Virus record (IMG/VR): IMGVR_UViG_3300020469_000001
Coordinates: 32,001 to 96,000 of that record
Length of the DNA: 64,000 nucleotides
From: a virus
Direction: 5' to 3' (one strand)
Both the position numbers and the translations under genes were made by a program. The notes below the pieces were generated by a model. The model did not search any database. It was not told the DNA's origin and saw only the letters and a program-made list of their open reading frames with translations. Shown one piece after another: positions 2,272 through 25,876 of this stretch. Each line of letters starts with the position of its first letter. Positions within the stretch are counted from its first letter, which is position 1.

Positions 2272-4329
2272 TTAGCTACCTTTATAAGCAAATGCCCACT
2301 TAGAAGTTGCACCGTCAATTAAGTCAGTGAATCCTAATCTCTGAGAAGCCACTAGGACTCTTCTTTGATTAGCTACTTCGTAGTCAGATTCTATTGTAAC
2401 ACCTCTTAATCTTGGCATTACATAGTTTCTTGGGTATACAGCGATTGCGCCATATTTACCAGCTGCTTTAGTTGCGAATTCATCACACATGATTACTCTT
2501 GATCCGAATACTTGTCCGATTTCGCCTGATAGTTTTGTTGCCATGTCGCCAACTAGGTTAGCATCTTGGAACTCAGCATCTTCTAGTAAGTTGTAGTACA
2601 CGTCTTGTGAGACAATGTAAACAATTTCTGAAGGATTGATACCATATTTACCCATGTTCTTTCTCATGGCTAATAGGTCAGCTGCTGTAACTGCATCAGT
2701 TGCTGCGAATCCAGAAGCACCGTCTGAAGTTTCGTGGTTATCACCGTCAGCCATATTTAATAGCCCAGCAAACGCTCCTGATGAATAAACACCATTGTCG
2801 TGGTTACCAGCTAAAATAGCATTTTCGATACTTCTTGCGTGTGATCTTACCATTGACTCTCTAATTAAAGGAAGTATTGGCATGATTGCATCTTCTTCAG
2901 TCTCATTACCTAAGTATGATTGTGAAATCAACTTAACTGTTGAAAGTGTTCTTTCAGCTAAGTCTACACCACCGTAAGGTGAACCTAATGTGTCGCCTCT
3001 TTGGGCTAAGTTACCATGTGGTGAACTACCTGAAGCTGTTTGAGCTGAAGCAAATTCAGCATAACCAGCATCTGGCATGATTGGGATAATCATATTAGCA
3101 GAAGTCATAGCAATTTCTCTAAATAGAGGCGCTAAGACTAGCTCGTTTTGAATATCTCTTTCAATATTTGTTGAAACGATTTGCTCAAAGTCTGCTGAAG
3201 ATACTTGAACACCTGAGTGTTCGTTCACTTTTTGCATAATTGATTTTGAGTAGTCATTGTCCCATCCTTTCCCAGTAGCTAAACCAGCAAATTTTGCATC
3301 AATAATATCGTTTTCGAATTCCTTCTTCCAATTACCGTTTCCTTGTCTATCAGCAAAATGTCTTTTAGAATCACGAATACTCATGATTTCTTCAGATTTT
3401 TCTGCTAATTGTTTTTCAAGGGAATCGACAACTGTTTTCAGATCTTCATTCTTTTCATTGACTCTAGTTTCTAGGTCGTTCATTAGCTTTTCAGCTCCTG
3501 TTAAACCTGCTTCCACTATAGTCTTTGTTTCTTCCTGTTTTGCTTCTTGAGCAGCTTTTTCTTCAGCTTCTACTTGAGCTAGCTTTTCAGCCTGCTCTTG
3601 TACTTGCTTTACTTCAGCTGCCTTTGCTTCGGCTTGCTTCATTGCAATTTTAGTCGCAGTATCTTCTGCTACTTTTTTTGCAAATGCTTCAAGGTCGATT
3701 GAAGTTTCAGGAGATTTTCTTTCTTCTGACATATCAGTCTCCGTTGATGAGGATTTCTCCTCGCTTGGCTGCTCAATTTTAACAGCGTCTGCTGCTGCGG
3801 TTGAGTTAGCCTGTAAAATTTCTTTCTGGTAGCTTCTGTAATCTTCCATAGAATCAAATGATTTTGCTAATCCAAAGGTTGCCCCTTGGTTGCAAGGCAC
3901 TGAGACTACTGAAACTTCAAAAAGCTCCGCATCTTTTATTTTATATCCATCGGTTTCAGTCATATATTCTGAATCCTTGCATCTGAAACCAACAGAAAAT
4001 GCTCCAAGGACTCCATCTTTAACTAATTGAGTTACATCGCCGGCAGCTTTAGATATCTTTGCAGTTATCTCTAAGCCTTTATCGGTTACTTCTAAACCAC
4101 TGGCTCTGCCAATTGGTTTATTGTAATCATGGTTAAAAAGAATAATTGGATTACCTTTATAGTTTTCCAATCCGCCTTTCATCCACGCTTCTGATTCGAT
4201 AATATCTCCAGCTCTATCTAGTCCGTTTGTACTTGCAGACCCTTTGATATTAACTCCGCCATCATCAGTTTCACCTAATGATTTAAAAGTGCTAGTCCAT
4301 TGATATATCTTTTCGTTATTTTTTGACAT
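2272..4329 (-). CDS. HK97-type prohead protease fused in frame to the major capsid protein (internal MCP start probably 3732)
   Basis: N-terminal protease motifs (DRAGD, FNHD..PIG, FSVGF, ELFEVSVVSVP), then a coiled-coil delta domain and HK97-fold capsid; GGAG-N6-ATG at 3732. Confidence 0.92.
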   Translation of the reverse strand: MSKNNEKIYQWTSTFKSLGETDDGGVNIKGSASTNGLDRAGDIIESEAWMKGGLENYKGNPIILFNHDYNKPIGRASGLEVTDKGLEITAKISKAAGDVTQLVKDGVLGAFSVGFRCKDSEYMTETDGYKIKDAELFEVSVVSVPCNQGATFGLAKSFDSMEDYRSYQKEILQANSTAAADAVKIEQPSEEKSSSTETDMSEERKSPETSIDLEAFAKKVAEDTATKIAMKQAEAKAAEVKQVQEQAEKLAQVEAEEKAAQEAKQEETKTIVEAGLTGAEKLMNDLETRVNEKNEDLKTVVDSLEKQLAEKSEEIMSIRDSKRHFADRQGNGNWKKEFENDIIDAKFAGLATGKGWDNDYSKSIMQKVNEHSGVQVSSADFEQIVSTNIERDIQNELVLAPLFREIAMTSANMIIPIMPDAGYAEFASAQTASGSSPHGNLAQRGDTLGSPYGGVDLAERTLSTVKLISQSYLGNETEEDAIMPILPLIRESMVRSHARSIENAILAGNHDNGVYSSGAFAGLLNMADGDNHETSDGASGFAATDAVTAADLLAMRKNMGKYGINPSEIVYIVSQDVYYNLLEDAEFQDANLVGDMATKLSGEIGQVFGSRVIMCDEFATKAAGKYGAIAVYPRNYVMPRLRGVTIESDYEVANQRRVLVASQRLGFTDLIDGATSKWAFAYKGS

Positions 4330-6231: not shown

Positions 6232-7530
6232 TTAAAAGGTAGTGGCACTTGTTTCAAACGAATAGAGTGCATATCGAATCGCGTCTGCCATGTGAGACGC
6301 ATAGTTATGTTTAGGTTTTTCTTTTAATAGATTTGGATTTGGATCCCACTGATATTGGTCTAAACAAAGTAATGATTCTTTACAACCTTGATGAACGAAA
6401 AGTTGGTCATTATCTACTATACCTGCTACTGCTCCGATGCCATCTAGTACTGACTTTTTGGCATTAATAGTGCTAATATCATAGTTTTGTGCAAAGTCAA
6501 ATCTTGTTTGTTGAGCTGCAGAATCTATGTAAATGTAGTCTATGTCCCACTTAATTATAAGTTTGTTAATTTCTATTGCATGCTGTTCAGTAGTTCGTTC
6601 ACTATCTAAATATTCGTCTACTAAATAGTATTTATCTGCGTCCCAGTCATACGCAATCACACAGAAAGCTGTAGGATCTTTGTACCCTACGTCCATTCCT
6701 GCAAAAATATCCATTCTTCCAGTTTCTAGTTCGGATAAATCTGCAATCTGTGTTTCATGATTAAATGCCCATACCTGACCTTCAAAAACATTGAAGTCAG
6801 CCATATATTCCTGATTAAATTCAGCTTCTGACATCGTCTTTTTAGCTTCGTCAATATCTGTTTGTGATAATCTAGGATTTTCGTGATAAGTTGCTCGTAC
6901 TGAAGCCCACTCTGGGAACTCATCGCTGAATCCTCTATGCCAGAACTCTGCAAACCAATTATTTCTACCCCGTGGAGTTGAGATAAATATAGCTTTAGAG
7001 TTTTCTTTATCTAGTGTAGGTCTTAGTGCTACATTGAAAGCATCTCTGCCATCAACAAGAGCCGCTTCATCAAATATGATGAGATCATAACTTCTACCTA
7101 CCACAGAGTCTACTTGGTTAACAGAACCCATACGAATTGTTGAGCCATTTGATAGCTCAATAACTTTATCTTTTGCATTATCTCTAGTAACTTCTAAATC
7201 AAAGTGTTTAATCAGTTGTCTTTGTAAATCAAATGAGATTTGTGATAAAGAGTAGTTAGGCGACATAAGTAAAACATTAGAACCTGGTACTAATGTGATT
7301 AATTGTCCTATGATATTTGCAATATAAGTTTTGCCCTGCCTACGAGAAATCGCAGCACATACAAATCTATATTTGGGGTTGTTTATAGCGTTGATCAACG
7401 CTGTTTGTGATGAATTAGGCTGAACGCCTAGTAAGTCCATGTAACCATTAATAGGTAACTTTATAAATTTTCTTTCATCAAATGTCATTAGTTCATCACT
7501 AAGGACATCTTTTCTGCTAATGGTTATCAA
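6232..7530 (-). CDS. Terminase large subunit
   Basis: Walker A RRQGKT, Walker B IIFDEAA, ISTPRG, RNase H-like GMDVG and HMADAIRY. Confidence 0.95.
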   Translation of the reverse strand: MITISRKDVLSDELMTFDERKFIKLPINGYMDLLGVQPNSSQTALINAINNPKYRFVCAAISRRQGKTYIANIIGQLITLVPGSNVLLMSPNYSLSQISFDLQRQLIKHFDLEVTRDNAKDKVIELSNGSTIRMGSVNQVDSVVGRSYDLIIFDEAALVDGRDAFNVALRPTLDKENSKAIFISTPRGRNNWFAEFWHRGFSDEFPEWASVRATYHENPRLSQTDIDEAKKTMSEAEFNQEYMADFNVFEGQVWAFNHETQIADLSELETGRMDIFAGMDVGYKDPTAFCVIAYDWDADKYYLVDEYLDSERTTEQHAIEINKLIIKWDIDYIYIDSAAQQTRFDFAQNYDISTINAKKSVLDGIGAVAGIVDNDQLFVHQGCKESLLCLDQYQWDPNPNLLKEKPKHNYASHMADAIRYALYSFETSATTF

Positions 7531-21721: not shown

Positions 21722-21976
21722 ATGAGATATATGTCAGAATTTGAAAGGCACGATAGAAAACTTCGTAAAATAAAAAATTGGTTAACTGTATTAGCTATGC
21801 TTTTAATTTTTATAGGATTGCAAGGGTTTTTACCCTTGCCACGCCTTGAATCTACATTTTTCATATTTACAGGTAATGCCTGTATTTTTTGGGTTGCTAT
21901 GGTAGATGAAGATAAAAGATTATTTCTTTTTACTTTGTTGATGATAATTGCACAAATTTCTAGGGTGGCATTATGA
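21722..21976 (+). CDS. Small membrane protein
   Basis: Three hydrophobic segments. Confidence 0.55.
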   Translation: MRYMSEFERHDRKLRKIKNWLTVLAMLLIFIGLQGFLPLPRLESTFFIFTGNACIFWVAMVDEDKRLFLFTLLMIIAQISRVAL

Positions 21977-22515
21977 CTTTTAGAGGAATGAAAGCGTATC
22001 TATATCTTAAACTTATAACTCGATTTTGTGATAGACTTTTTAATATAAATCAGAAAATCAGAATTTATGATTTAGATGGAACTATAATAGATTCGAGCCA
22101 CCGAGCAAAGCATAATGAATATGGAAAATTAGATTTAGACCATTGGAAAGAAAACAATACTAAAGAAAATATTTTTAAAGATGATTTGCTTCCTATGTAT
22201 TGGCAACTCGTAGCCGATTATAAGAATGGCGATTATATTATTTTATGCACAGCTAGAGAAATGGGAAAATGGGATTTAGAATATTTGCATACAATGGGTA
22301 TTTATTACGATAAAATTTTATGTAGAAATGAAAATGAAAATACTGCCGATTGGAAATTAAAAAGGCGTTTACTAAATCCATATTTTAATTTGAAGCCATT
22401 TAGAAATATACAAAAATATTTCTATGATGATAACGATTCTAACCTTTTAGCCATTGGCGATATGGGGGCGACTTGTTGCAACGCTAAAGAATGGAATAAC
22501 AAATTTAGCAAATAG
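21973..22515 (+). CDS. HAD-superfamily phosphatase (PNK 3'-phosphatase/nucleotidase-like)
   Basis: YDLDGT, CTAR, K and FYDD motifs. Confidence 0.85.
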   Translation: MTFRGMKAYLYLKLITRFCDRLFNINQKIRIYDLDGTIIDSSHRAKHNEYGKLDLDHWKENNTKENIFKDDLLPMYWQLVADYKNGDYIILCTAREMGKWDLEYLHTMGIYYDKILCRNENENTADWKLKRRLLNPYFNLKPFRNIQKYFYDDNDSNLLAIGDMGATCCNAKEWNNKFSK

Positions 22516-22700: not shown

Positions 22701-22904
22701 AGAACGATTTATCAACCTTCACAAATCCATAACACGAAACGCCAAAAATGTCAAGGGTTAATTTTCAAAAATTTTGTGATATAATCACTAGGTGAATTTA
22801 CTTTATAAATATAGAATCGTCATGGAATTAATCAGAACTGTAATTCCTGTTATTATGGTCATATTACAGGGCATAATTATTTTTAAATTATTTTCATAAA
22901 TCGC

Positions 22905-22933
22905 TTGACAATAGGGGCGAAATCGCCGATAAT
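22905..22933 (+). promoter_or_regulatory. sigma70-type promoter
   Basis: TTGACA-N17-GATAAT. Confidence 0.7.
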
Positions 22934-22944
22934 ATTTATATTGA

Positions 22945-23212
22945 TTGAGAGGGAAACAACCGAAAGGGAAACGAACTCGACAGACTAGGAAAGACAACAG
23001 AAACATAGACACAGAAACCCACTCTCTAAGAATCGAACTCGCAGAACTTCAACCACCTCCGAGACTGAGTCGCTGACAAGGTCAACAGGGAATGAACTCA
23101 AAATCAAGACAGGCTAGGAAGTCTCGACCAACTAGCCGACCGAGAGGGAAAGGACTCATACTCCGAGATTATATCAAAAGAGATTGTTGGACTTCCCCTC
23201 TCACTTTTTTTT
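22945..23212 (+). ncRNA. Candidate ~260-nt structured sRNA (U-poor, GGA-rich)
   Basis: Follows a promoter; 5' TGAGAGGGAA pairs with 3' TTCCCCTCTCA, then T8; no + strand ORF in the track. Confidence 0.55.
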
Positions 23213-23270
23213 CACCGATTTTTTCGGAGGACTGCCCCTGCCCGAGATTTGAGAAATCCTGACGCGCCCT

Positions 23271-23400
23271 GCGCCAACGCAGTGCAGTGTCGAAACGAAA
23301 CGTGGTGCGGGTGCGCCAAAGGCAGTGCAGTAACGAAACGAGAGGTCTGCGCAGAGCGATCCGACTTATCCACAGGTTATCCCCAAGTCTCTGTGGGTAT
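23271..23400. repeat. GCGCCAA-CAGTGCAGT-CGAAACGA direct repeats plus DnaA boxes
   Basis: Repeat copies start at 23271 and 23313; TTATCCACA at 23366-23374 and TTATCCCCA at 23377-23385. Confidence 0.75.
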
Positions 23401-23418
23401 CCCGCCCCCCACCCTATT

Positions 23419-23447
23419 ATTGTATCACACTTTGTCGCTCTTGTCAA
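23419..23447 (-). promoter_or_regulatory. Leftward sigma70 promoter reading into the repeat/DnaA-box cassette
   Basis: TTGACA-N17-TACAAT. Confidence 0.65.
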
Positions 23448-23489
23448 GTCTTTTTGAAAATAAAAAACCCGCTTTCGCGGGTTCTGTGA

Positions 23490-23678
23490 TTAGGAACAGA
23501 TGTCGATTAATCTTTTGATTGTTTCTGCATTCGCTCTCTCAAGACTGTTTAAGAAACCTTTGTCGGCTCTGATTACCACCTCTAATTCTGCAACTAATGT
23601 TGCTTTAGTTTTTACAACTTTTTTCGCTTTTTCGTTTTTCATTTCGTTCTCCTTATTTATAGATATAATTATACGCAC
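23490..23678 (-). CDS. Short A2-family-like protein (C-terminal module; real start probably the internal Met MKNEK)
   Basis: TKATLVAELE...SLERANAETIKRL; has its own promoter and terminator. Confidence 0.55.
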   Translation of the reverse strand: MRIIISINKENEMKNEKAKKVVKTKATLVAELEVVIRADKGFLNSLERANAETIKRLIDICS

Positions 23679-23796
23679 ATTTTCTAGGATATCAAGAACT
23701 ATTTTACATTATTTTCAGAAATTACCACAAAACACCAAAAAACCCGCCCCAACTGCCTGAAAGCCCCTGTTTATGCGGGTTTCACGGGCACGCTCC

Positions 23797-23868
23797 GCGC
23801 CAAACGCCCAGTGCAGTATCGAAACGAAGTGCGAAAGTGAAGTGCCAAAGCGAAGTGCTAAAACGAAC
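23797..23868. repeat. Third copy of the CAGTGCAGT repeat plus GAAGTGC iterations
   Basis: gcgccaaacgcccagtgcagtatcgaaacgaagtgc...gaagtgc...gaagtgc. Confidence 0.7.
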
Positions 23869-23891
23869 TAGTCTATAATTAGGTTATTTAT

Positions 23892-23920
23892 AGTATATCA
23901 TACATTTGGGCGGGTGTCAA
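23892..23920 (-). promoter_or_regulatory. Leftward sigma70 promoter reading into the second repeat cassette
   Basis: TTGACA-N17-TATACT. Confidence 0.6.
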
Positions 23921-24034
23921 GGGAATTTTGCACAAATTTGCGTTTTTTGCGACAAATCGCAACGAAGGTTGGTGGTTTCGCGTCCCGCCCCCCGAATCAA
24001 ATGCTGATAAATTATAAATAAATCACATTTATTG

Positions 24035-24164
24035 TTGACACAAGTGATAAAAGCGAATATAATATATACATATTAAAAAGGAGGCAAAAGTGAAATACAA
24101 GAAAACAATCAAATCAAAGTTTTTTCATAAAATCCTTGACAATAGAAACAAAAGTGGTTATAAT
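24035..24164 (+). promoter_or_regulatory. Tandem consensus sigma70 promoters (24035-24063 and 24136-24164)
   Basis: Two exact TTGACA-N17-TATAAT. Confidence 0.85.
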
Positions 24165-24194
24165 ATACTATATAAAATATTTGGGAGAATACTA

Positions 24195-24506
24195 ATGGCA
24201 AACGCTAAAAATTATACAGAAGAAATGGTCAGTCAAATGACCGAAGCATACTCTGCTAACCCTAGTAGAGAAACAGTAGACGAACTTGCTCAAACTTTCG
24301 GCAAAACAACTAGAAGTATCATTGCTAAGTTGTCAAGAGAAGGAGTATACATCGCTCAACCTAGAACTACAAAATCTGGTGAACCAGTTGTAGCAAAGTC
24401 TGAGTTAGTTGCTCAACTCGAAGCACACTTTGGAATTGAACTACCTACACTTGTCAAAGCAGGTAAGCAAGACCTACAAAGATTGGTCGACACAATCGCA
24501 TCTTAA
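24195..24506 (+). CDS. T5 A2-like DNA-binding protein
   Basis: NYTEE...ELA..FGKT.RSIIAKLSREGVY HTH-like; start reassigned using the GGGAG RBS. Confidence 0.7.
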   Translation: MANAKNYTEEMVSQMTEAYSANPSRETVDELAQTFGKTTRSIIAKLSREGVYIAQPRTTKSGEPVVAKSELVAQLEAHFGIELPTLVKAGKQDLQRLVDTIAS

Positions 24507-24556
24507 TTGTTGAGGAGTGATTACCCTAAGTAATCAATTTTGAAGAGAGTATCTAT

Positions 24557-24621
24557 CTGAGGTAAGTGTCTACGGAAGCACACCTAAAGAGGAAGTAGCA
24601 AGTTCGACTCTTGCACCTCAG
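24557..24621 (+). ncRNA. tRNA-like element lacking an anticodon arm and CCA
   Basis: Acceptor CTGAGGT/ACCTCAG, D-arm GTGT-CTACGGAA-GCAC, T-arm GCAAG-TTCGACT-CTTGC; anticodon arm reduced to CCT-AAAG-AGG. Confidence 0.7.
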
Positions 24622-24671
24622 ATATCTCTGCTCTGCTCAAAGTTTAGTCAGTAAAAAAATCGCTTTTTCTA

Positions 24672-24700
24672 TTGACAAATCCTTAAAAAGCGAGTATAAT
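24672..24700 (+). promoter_or_regulatory. Consensus sigma70 promoter
   Basis: TTGACA-N17-TATAAT. Confidence 0.85.
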
Positions 24701-24719
24701 ATATTTATATTCAAAAAAA

Positions 24720-24800
24720 GGAAAACCCACTGGGACTGGGCATCTGGAAGTGATGACATAGTTAACACTTAGAATTAAACTGTTTGCCCTACCCACCTTT
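24720..24800 (+). ncRNA. Candidate ~80-nt small RNA
   Basis: Only sequence between two promoters; TGGG-ACT-GGGCA pairs with TGCCC-TA-CCCA. Confidence 0.35.
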
Positions 24801-24823
24801 CAAGAAATAAATCAAAATTTTTC

Positions 24824-24852
24824 TTGACAAATGGTTAAAAAGTGGATATAAT
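24824..24852 (+). promoter_or_regulatory. Consensus sigma70 promoter of the large ncRNA candidate
   Basis: TTGACA-N17-TATAAT. Confidence 0.85.
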
Positions 24853-24859
24853 ATACTTA

Positions 24860-25797
24860 TATTCAAAAACAAAAAAGAATAGCAAAACACGGAGTGAAGT
24901 ACGCCATTAAAGATACTTCTAGTGTGGCGACACGATAAAATGACTGCCGAACGCTCGTTAGATATTGAGAGAAAGCGTTAGATGAGTTCAATATCCGCTT
25001 TTGAGAGTCAGATACAGACATATCCTCCGCAGCAGGAAGCGAGTGTATCTTCGATTGACTTGTCGGTAAAGGGAGTATAAAAGCACGATAACTGCCAGTA
25101 ATTCCTACACTAAGTCCCTTTTTCGGGCAGTAGGTAGTAAGCGATTTCGTTGACTGCTCTCCAAGTAGTGTATTGGCACTATAAAGTCCTGAGGATTAGT
25201 ATGAATTACACAGGTAAAACAGTAAATCATACCGTGATTGACGCGTAGATACATCGAGAATATCACGCAGAGTGAGGAAACCACGCTGATTCTATACCAC
25301 ACCCTCAACCGTTTCGGTAGTAGGAAGTAGAGCATAGAACGAGTAGTAAACCAGTTTGACATTTCAGTGTGCAAGGTATGAGATAATTTCAAAACCCACC
25401 AAGTAATGAGAGCATAAATGCAAACTTCAAGGGCAAGGAAGTTAGAGGAACATATGATGTACTTTAGTTGAGACTTCCACGCTACCTGCGAGTGAGAACC
25501 CACGCGGCGATTCAGGTTTACCTGTCAAAGTAGTAGGGACATTGGGGGCAGTTAGCAACTTAGAGGAAATAGACACCGATTGATGAGTGAGGAAAACAAT
25601 CGAGTGAGCAAGTGAAAGGTCGATACAACCTCTATTCCAAGTATCGCACTTGCAGTTAGGCATACACTATCGTTGAGGTTTCGAGTAAAGCAATCCGAGA
25701 TAGAGAGTAATGCCAAGTTGTAGACCGATATCAGTCTGACAGCGATAGTAAAAAACAAATAGTTTTTTCGAGGGAACAGCGCGTTCCCTCTTTTTTT
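24860..25797 (+). ncRNA. Candidate giant (~900 nt) highly structured non-coding RNA
   Basis: Promoter-to-terminator unit with no + strand ORF >=60 aa; many local and long-range helices (see findings). Confidence 0.7.
25769..25797 (+). terminator. Rho-independent terminator
   Basis: gagggaac-agcgc-gttccctc followed by T7. Confidence 0.88.
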
Positions 25798-25847
25798 GTC
25801 TCAAATAAGTTAACATCAAAATTTCTTATGTTAATTTAAAATAGTTC

Positions 25848-25876
25848 TTGACAAACAAGATAAAAGTGAGTATAAT
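25848..25876 (+). promoter_or_regulatory. Consensus sigma70 promoter
   Basis: TTGACA-N17-TATAAT. Confidence 0.85.

Follow-up and report, generated by a model that had tools for sequence, protein, structure and literature searches.

What occupies positions 24860-25797 of this viral DNA, an interval with no usable open reading frame on either strand? The window, meaning the whole stretch of 64,000 nucleotides analysed here, was taken from an IMG/VR virus that is complete, has terminal repeats and measures 105,272 bp, of which it covers bases 32001-96000. Comparison with Demerecviridae gave identities of 45% for the DNA polymerase and about 35% for the head protein, values which identify this marine virus as a distant T5-like phage and which agree with the T5-like affiliation given in the initial annotation of this DNA. 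A single 685-aa ORF of the minus strand (2272-4329) has matches to the major head protein as well as to the head maturation protease, which are encoded by two separate genes in cultured T5-like phages. Short palindromes are strongly depleted across the window relative to expectation from base composition (43 observed and 216 expected for GATC, 21 and 216 for ACGT, 4 and 75 for CCGG, 21 and 75 for GGCC), which may reflect the avoidance of restriction sites. The initial annotation interpreted the interval as a large structured non-coding RNA with its own promoter and terminator, distinct from GOLLD, ROOL, RNase P, tmRNA and introns, and it is this proposal that the present analysis follows up.

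The limits of the putative gene are sharply drawn. A sigma-70 promoter on the plus strand at 24824-24852 (-35 element at 24824-24829, -10 element at 24847-24852) matches the consensus at 12 of 12 positions, exactly as the perfect TTGACA-N17-TATAAT reported initially, and nearly all of the roughly 76 related loci have a perfect promoter at the equivalent position. Transcription would start at about 24859-24860 and yield what is probably a single primary transcript of about 938 nt on the plus strand (24860-25797), beginning with an A-rich leader (24860-24917) which in the MAFFT segment alignment of the homologues varies in length and sequence and in some carries extra hairpins. The terminator, described at the outset as strong, deserves the description: an intrinsic terminator at 25770-25797 (plus strand) consists of an 8-bp stem (25770-25790) with five G-C pairs, a 5-nt loop and a U7 tract, and its counterparts in the homologues differ in stem sequence and keep the hairpin and the U tract. 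No strong internal promoter or terminator was found inside 24860-25797. A second perfect promoter lies downstream of the terminator at 25848-25876. The genes beyond it share the strand of the RNA, as would be expected if the transcript were a long cis-acting leader controlling downstream early genes through terminator read-through, but these genes are served by the promoter at 25848-25876 in the window and by its counterpart in every relative, and the terminator with its U7 tract is strong, which together render such a leader very improbable. Folding energy gave z-scores against shuffled sequences of -1.85 for the plus strand and -1.94 for the minus strand of the interval; the measure fails to separate the strands and is therefore not used as evidence.

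Could the interval nevertheless encode a protein? The initial claim that no plus-strand ORF is present holds in practice, the longest being 32 aa, and the three plus frames together contain 70 stop codons, with all three kinds of stop in each of them. On the minus strand an ORF of 132 aa (25105-25503) overlaps the RNA interval; it matches no PHROG or Pfam family and is interrupted in a close relative, L003, which is 84% identical. Among the homologous units no frame is consistently open, and no protein-coding signature is conserved on either strand. A coding function (recoded, frameshifted or divided among small ORFs), or a DNA-level function such as an origin or a packaging site, could appeal to this minus-strand ORF and to GC-rich iteron-like repeats 1-2 kb upstream. 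Besides the stop codons and the lack of conservation of the ORF, it is the pattern of covariation described below that largely refutes both, because crossing helices and frequent G-U pairs among covarying positions characterise RNA and not DNA, and the probability left to them is close to negligible.

In a blastn comparison, 50,697 GenBank phages returned no nucleotide match. Homologues were retrieved instead through the gene for a 103-aa protein just upstream (24195-24506), which led to 80 IMG/VR loci. About 76 of these repeat the same layout, in which the 103-aa gene is followed by one or two perfect promoters, then by an ORF-poor stretch and its terminator, and finally by another perfect promoter. 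The 68 distinct homologous units range in length from 833 to 1291 nt and share a common base composition (A 0.33, G 0.22, C 0.19, T 0.25); conservation among them, as detected by blastn, is patchy and strongest in the first ~430 nt. A covariance model of one core domain (domain II, described below) added a further 29 IMG/VR loci with 30 matches among 56 newly fetched loci that were searched; these are the loci that model confirmation kept after a 15-mer scan of viral contigs with many chance hits. The same model found a single copy in the window's own genome and no match in Vibrio phage phi 3, Pantoea phage AAS21 or E. coli phage DT57C. One locus, L103, contains two adjacent domain II folds on the minus strand (7080-7379; 83.6 and 55.7 bits), a duplication of a core domain within the RNA. 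Homologues occur in more than 70 related viral contigs, and the RNA is a near-universal feature of one abundant uncultured marine phage clade.

Does the conservation of the first part of these units reflect a fold? A naive all-against-all covariation scan recovered only a few helices from the full-length MAFFT alignment, which is poor, and segment alignments and a covariance model were needed for this reason. A recurring theme in the segment alignments is that the loop of a hairpin pairs with the sequence directly downstream. As these comparisons show, the 5' ~430 nt constitute a conserved core, in which short helices, arranged into five or more H-type pseudoknots among other elements, are joined by conserved A-rich linkers and whose domains follow one another in the same order in all homologues. 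About 70 base pairs of this part are supported by compensatory changes. Most of the core is built from pseudoknots, a feature that the initial annotation missed.

Domain I (24918-25070) was assessed on a plain MAFFT alignment of 19 sequences fitted to no structure. In this alignment 91.6% of the cells assigned to pairs are complementary, compared with 76.2% after shuffling and 30-49% with slid partners; 26 of the 41 pairs have changed on both sides, and the covariation score is 0.478 vs 0.185. The first element on the plus strand, pseudoknot 0 (24922-24948), has a hairpin 24922-25/24930-33 that is paired in all sequences and in which three of four pairs differ on both sides. The loop of this hairpin, GGCG (24926-29), is joined to 24945-48 with 95% pairing, and this loop helix, being nearly invariant, provides little information for or against itself. 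Pseudoknot A (24950-24995, plus strand) consists of an outer helix 24950-54/24975-79 and an inner helix 24955-58/24967-70, which are weaker (74% and 71% paired, respectively), and of a loop strand 24961-65 joined to 24991-95. This crossing helix, proposed initially as the local stem GATAT/ATATC, is 96.8% paired and covaries at all five pairs. In pseudoknot B (25007-25050, plus strand), a 3-bp stem 25007-09/25017-19 (GC in 13 sequences, CG in five, GU in one) encloses the strand 25010-16, which pairs with 25044-50 across an inserted hairpin 25023-26/25034-37 (88% paired, 4/4 covarying). The 7-bp helix so formed is 99.2% paired with covariation at every one of its seven pairs and represents the inner part, (A)GATACA/TGTATC(T), of a nested stem in the initial annotation, the outer part of which, AGTCA/TGACT, is not conserved. 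The domain ends in hairpin Hc of the plus strand (25051-55/25062-66, loop UGACUU), which is always paired, has three pairs changed on both sides and has a closing pair that is UG in 15 sequences and UA in four.

Between the two well-supported domains lies a central branched domain (25072-25163, plus strand), for which we provisionally propose a closing helix at about 25072-75/25159-62 and a hairpin of variable length based on 25104-08/25130-34. Inspection of the alignment by eye indicates that its linkers CAGUAA and GUAAG are conserved, and an anchor-based check gave 4.7 bp vs 3.9 bp in shuffles, a weak improvement.

Domain II (25163-25289) was modelled from nine sequences, and the resulting covariance model matched 44 of 61 sources (the window and 60 loci), once per locus and always on the plus strand. 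Over these 44 matches 91.0% of the paired cells are complementary, against 69.1% after shuffling and 32-48% with slid partners, and 26 of 30 pairs covary. Hairpin Ha (AGTGT/GCACT, 25167-71/25176-80, plus strand), which belongs to one of the eleven helix sets of the initial annotation and is followed by a conserved UAUAAA, is 98.3% paired over the 44 sequences, with 5/5 pairs covarying, and 98.5% paired on the unfitted alignment. Pseudoknot C (25188-25232, plus strand) combines a stem 25188-91/25211-14, paired in 96.9% of cases on the model alignment and in 100% on the unfitted one with covariation at all four pairs, and a loop strand 25199-204 that pairs with 25227-32. The latter, the GTATGA/TCATAC helix of the initial annotation, covaries in the sense that all six pairs have changed on both sides; it varies in register and is 60-71% paired, the upper figure being that of the unfitted alignment. 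The TTAC/GTAA stem that had been nested within it, as well as the separately proposed CGTGAT/ATCACG, gave way to the better-supported CCTG/CAGG and GCG..GATA/TATC..CGC. Pseudoknot D (25233-25268, plus strand) joins the strand 25233-35 to the loop 25254-56 of a hairpin formed by 25243-45/25266-68 and 25248-51/25261-64; the hairpin is 97-100% paired, and the linker GAUUGAC is conserved. The first pair of its crossing helix is CG in 18 sequences, GC in 13 and AU in five and is never unpaired, and since this helix is absent from the covariance model, its pairing cannot be an artefact of fitting. The pseudoknot stems left outside the model still covary. Hairpin He (25272-74/25282-84, plus strand, extended by 25269-70/25286-87) is 92-99% paired, with longer variants of the GUUAG/CUAAC type in some lineages, and its loop AGGAAAC corresponds to the first GAGUGAG motif. 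The four GAGTGAG copies initially counted in the interval are indeed present (25270, 25490, 25585 and 25602) and make up four of 11 in the 64-kb window.

Which strand carries this structure? Across domains I and II, 125 cells are occupied by G-U and only 30 by A-C, an excess which implies that the RNA is read from the plus strand and which agrees with the orientation of the promoter and terminator. The strong covariation of both domains among the homologues, for which the initial annotation had asked, shows the base pairs and pseudoknots of the core to be under selection on the plus strand, as judged from the substitutions that these sequences have accumulated.

The remainder of the RNA evolves differently. 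Comparison of lineages shows the last ~500 nt, of which the variable region 25290-25760 forms the bulk, to be a fast-evolving mosaic of predicted hairpin modules that have been swapped, moved or duplicated, with the order and combination of modules differing from one lineage to another. On the plus strand of the window the region includes a helix M1 (25368-72/25412-16), a widespread three-way module, a small hairpin 25513-16/25521-24, hairpins at 25577-82/25597-602 and 25608-26/25641-53, and a helix 25660-64/25712-16 with compensatory changes in L003. Within the three-way module, P_b (25437-42/25473-78), known from the outset as GGAAGT/ACTTCC, is 96% paired with 4/6 pairs covarying; for P_a (25432-34/25481-83) the MAFFT alignment allowed no count, as the lineages differ in the register of this helix. 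In P_c (25484-89/25548-53) a strand ending in CUGC pairs with a downstream GCAG strand; perfect 9-bp partners occur in 14 units in three sequence versions, and compensating changes are seen in L003 and L014. The 3' strand of P_c is the one which the initial annotation had paired with 25089-96 as part of a closure spanning about 450 nt (25089-25119 with 25535-25554). L003 has two mismatches and zero compensation in that closure, and its 5' strand is absent from other lineages, so the long-range pairing is not supported by the sequences compared and the nearer partner fits better. Much of the 3' half can be compared with L003 only. There the helix CGATAC/GTATCG (25621-26/25641-46) of the original proposal gains two compensatory changes, while the stems CGATTG/CAATCG, GCAAGTG/CACTTGC and ACTATCGTTG/CAGCGATAGT are identical or nearly so in this sole close homologue; GCAGT/ACTGC, proposed elsewhere in the interval, found no support. 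In L009, L010, L016, L020, L021, L023, L026-L029, L031-L033 and L035, a 19-nt hairpin module (GUAGUAGGGCAAGUCCCAC) is present in exactly one copy per locus, without exception within the RNA, where depending on the lineage it caps M1 or sits in the loop of the terminator.

The surroundings of the gene contain several other elements. In L007 and L013 a tRNA-Glu(UUC) gene lies between the 103-aa gene and the promoter of the RNA, and in L074 a tRNA-Glu gene lies downstream of it. At the position that this gene has in L007 and L013, the window has a tRNA-like element (24545-24638, plus strand) with acceptor, D and T arms and a truncated anticodon arm, which ARAGORN and Rfam miss and which L003 has in an equally truncated form. 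Next to it, a perfect promoter at 24672-24700 is followed by about 120 nt up to the next perfect promoter (24672-24823, plus strand), with no ORF in the window; the equivalent region in some relatives contains an ORF of 60-86 aa. Further upstream, 22905-23215 (plus strand) is a second unit running from promoter to terminator, of about 260 nt, purine-rich, without an ORF and with complementary ends, which is a candidate for a separate small RNA. The segment 23260-23995, just upstream of the RNA island, is GC-rich (about 0.5 against a background of 0.33) and contains repeated CAGTGCAGT..CGAAACGA units and inward-facing promoters. A 180-aa protein encoded at 21973-22515 (plus strand) matches the HAD_PNKP phosphatase domain weakly, at 25.0 bits where the cut-off is 27.6 bits, and may correspond to the pre-early deoxynucleotidase of T5; we take this gene and the GC-rich repeats to resemble the T5 boundary between pre-early and early regions. 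A phage ribosomal protein bS21 (PF01165, 36.6 bits) is encoded on the minus strand at 30026-30289, 4.3 kb downstream of the RNA, and more than 25 loci of the clade have conserved it at 4-5 kb on the downstream side.

Is the unit one RNA, or a precursor that is cut into several small stable RNAs, in the manner of a small-RNA operon such as the T4 and T5 clusters of tRNAs and stable RNAs? The supported helices are nearly all local, none that would close the unit over a long range has survived, the 3' modules are shuffled between lineages, domain II can occur in two tandem copies as in L103, and a tRNA or tRNA-like element adjoins the unit, all of which would suit a precursor. A precursor would nonetheless sit poorly with the single promoter and single terminator, with the fixed order of the core domains in all homologues, and with conserved linkers that join these domains directly, leaving no spacer; nor are there tRNA-like processing signals within the unit. 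We consider processing into small RNAs unlikely, and favour the reading of the unit as one large RNA.

Does this RNA belong to a family already described? At the gathering score, a cmscan of the whole window against Rfam 15 gave no hits, including to GOLLD (RF01998), ROOL (RF03087), OLE (RF01071), raiA and HEARO, and at E <= 10 the region 22800-26100 gave only small-RNA hits at chance level; among fifteen homologous loci Rfam detected only tRNAs. Neither RNase P RNA nor group I or group II introns were matched by their Rfam models, and ARAGORN found no tRNA or tmRNA in the window. A large IMG/VR survey of 10,006 csRNAs describes motifs of only 29-151 nt (PMC10690425). The pseudoknot-rich core and the strictly conserved unpaired GAUUGAC, AAACAG and AGGAAAC loop would be accounted for if the RNA were a ribozyme or a ligand sensor, large and of a new class; yet no ribozyme or intron family of Rfam is matched, flanking exons and an obvious substrate are missing, and 940 nt is far above the size of known self-cleavers, so that we assign this reading a low probability.

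Phages are known to encode arrays of pseudoknotted units (bioRxiv 10.64898/2026.09.22.753630; 10.64898/2026.04.26.720920), and the RNA might by analogy be the template or guide of a reverse-transcriptase or RNA-guided system (a retron, a DRT/UG27 array or a VIPR vrRNA) or an antitoxin-mimic array of the ToxI type. The complete 105-kb genome, however, contains no reverse transcriptase (RVT_1, PF00078) in a search that matched three of 14 control genomes, which excludes a retron msr-msd and a template RNA of the DRT or UG27 type as described in the first of these reports. The VIPR vrRNA of the second comprises 9-16 tandem YNNGG repeats and a tail next to a Vipr RAMP gene (bioRxiv 10.64898/2026.04.26.720920); it was rejected on its repeats, as the RNA has no run of three or more YNNGG or GGY 5-nt repeats and no 5-nt GG periodicity. 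An array like the type III antitoxin ToxI was likewise rejected for want of tandem direct repeats of about 36 nt, TRF detecting no tandem repeats in the RNA, where direct repeats are short and scattered. These readings are largely refuted, and together they are extremely improbable. A sponge of the CsrB/RsmZ type, an SD-like sponge and an Hfq sponge were rejected as well: GGA motifs number 14.4 per unit vs 17.8 in shuffles and (ARN)4 tracts 1.44 vs 1.47, and SD-like motifs are not enriched in the units. AGUAG is enriched 2.4-fold and UUCGG, as in UUCG-type loops, 3.7-fold, which fits an RNA with a tertiary fold better than a sponge; UUCG-type loops in excess and conserved linkers between helices are typical of such RNAs.

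With homologues in more than 70 loci, covariation, no coding signature and no Rfam match, the central proposal of the initial annotation stands, and 24860-25797 is very probably a structured non-coding RNA gene of a new family outside Rfam. A length of 938 nt, about 70 covarying pairs, at least five pseudoknots, its own promoter and terminator, and the tRNA-Glu gene adjacent in relatives place the RNA, under a loose definition with a lower size limit of 500 nt, among the large ornate phage RNAs: it is a new family of the GOLLD/ROOL kind, adjoining a tRNA gene.

What could such an RNA do? The promoter, consensus in sequence and one of a set of near-identical cassettes in this region, and the position in the early region lead us to infer that the RNA is made early and abundantly. 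We envisage that the early promoter would transcribe the RNA up to the intrinsic terminator, and that the transcript would fold into a compact particle acting in trans early in infection, as a scaffold or decoy, rather than as an mRNA, antisense RNA, guide RNA or template. The particle would bind a protein or further copies of the RNA, as is thought for ROOL and GOLLD, and a conserved fold with lineage-specific contact surfaces would be in keeping with a core that stays fixed while its periphery is quickly reshuffled. This trans-acting role, argued largely from analogy, is a possible rather than a probable one. A bolder version would see here the first member of a new class of giant pseudoknot-chain RNAs, which either assembles into an RNA-only multi-copy particle, like ROOL and GOLLD, or acts with the phage bS21 on the small ribosomal subunits of the host, which the two would capture or reprogramme early in infection; we regard it as distinctly unlikely. 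A self-complementary loop covarying as a palindrome was looked for by eye and not seen.

Among known RNAs, the closest parallels are found in phages and in bacteria. ROOL (RF03087) is a large RNA of phages and prophages with many pseudoknots, often located beside tRNA genes and transcribed as its own unit, with protein partner and function not known (PMC12286853). The RNA described here likewise comes from a phage, has many pseudoknots, its own transcription unit and a tRNA gene nearby, but matches ROOL in neither sequence nor structure, is longer (about 940 nt, compared with about 580-660 nt) and belongs to a marine T5-like clade, whereas ROOL is found mostly in phages of Bacillota; ROOL forms an octameric cage. 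GOLLD (RF01998), often longer than 800 nt, is encoded by phages near tRNA islands (PMC12286853). It resembles our RNA in being large, phage-encoded and tRNA-adjacent, and differs in that its model gives no match and that it assembles into a cage of 14 copies, with a level that rises during lysis, while the RNA of this clade would, from the type and position of its promoter, be early. GOLLD also has one conserved and one variable half, as does the RNA described here, in which the conserved half is the 5' one. OLE RNA (RF01071) is a proposed binder of the ribosomal protein bS21 (PMC12286853). The likeness lies in a large ornate RNA and in a bS21 gene 4-5 kb from it, a link that in this clade is a co-occurrence of both genes; OLE differs in that it is chromosomally encoded, in extremophilic Bacillota, and has Ole proteins dedicated to it, and its model gives no match. 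A run of several H-type pseudoknots in one RNA is reminiscent of tmRNA, but the present RNA is about 2.5 times longer and has neither tRNA-like pairing of its ends nor a tag reading frame, and with ARAGORN and Rfam also finding none, tmRNA was rejected. The species 1 and 2 RNAs of T4 and the stable RNAs of T5 are stable non-coding RNAs, their role not known, encoded beside tRNA genes in large virulent phages; they differ in size, being about 100-140 nt long, and the domain II model had no match in DT57C, a relative of T5.

To our knowledge, bacteria and phages have yielded very few RNAs above 500 nt whose folds are complex and conserved. Where such RNAs have been studied, they have proved to be ribozymes, the cores of ribonucleoproteins or, in recent work, cages made of RNA only. 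The RNA of this marine clade would rank among the longest of the large structured RNAs and has a core made almost wholly of tandem pseudoknots. Given the consensus promoter above it, it should be expressed in E. coli and is thus a ready subject for chemical probing and cryo-EM. Set beside ROOL and GOLLD, it adds a new data point on the role of the large phage RNAs that adjoin tRNA genes.
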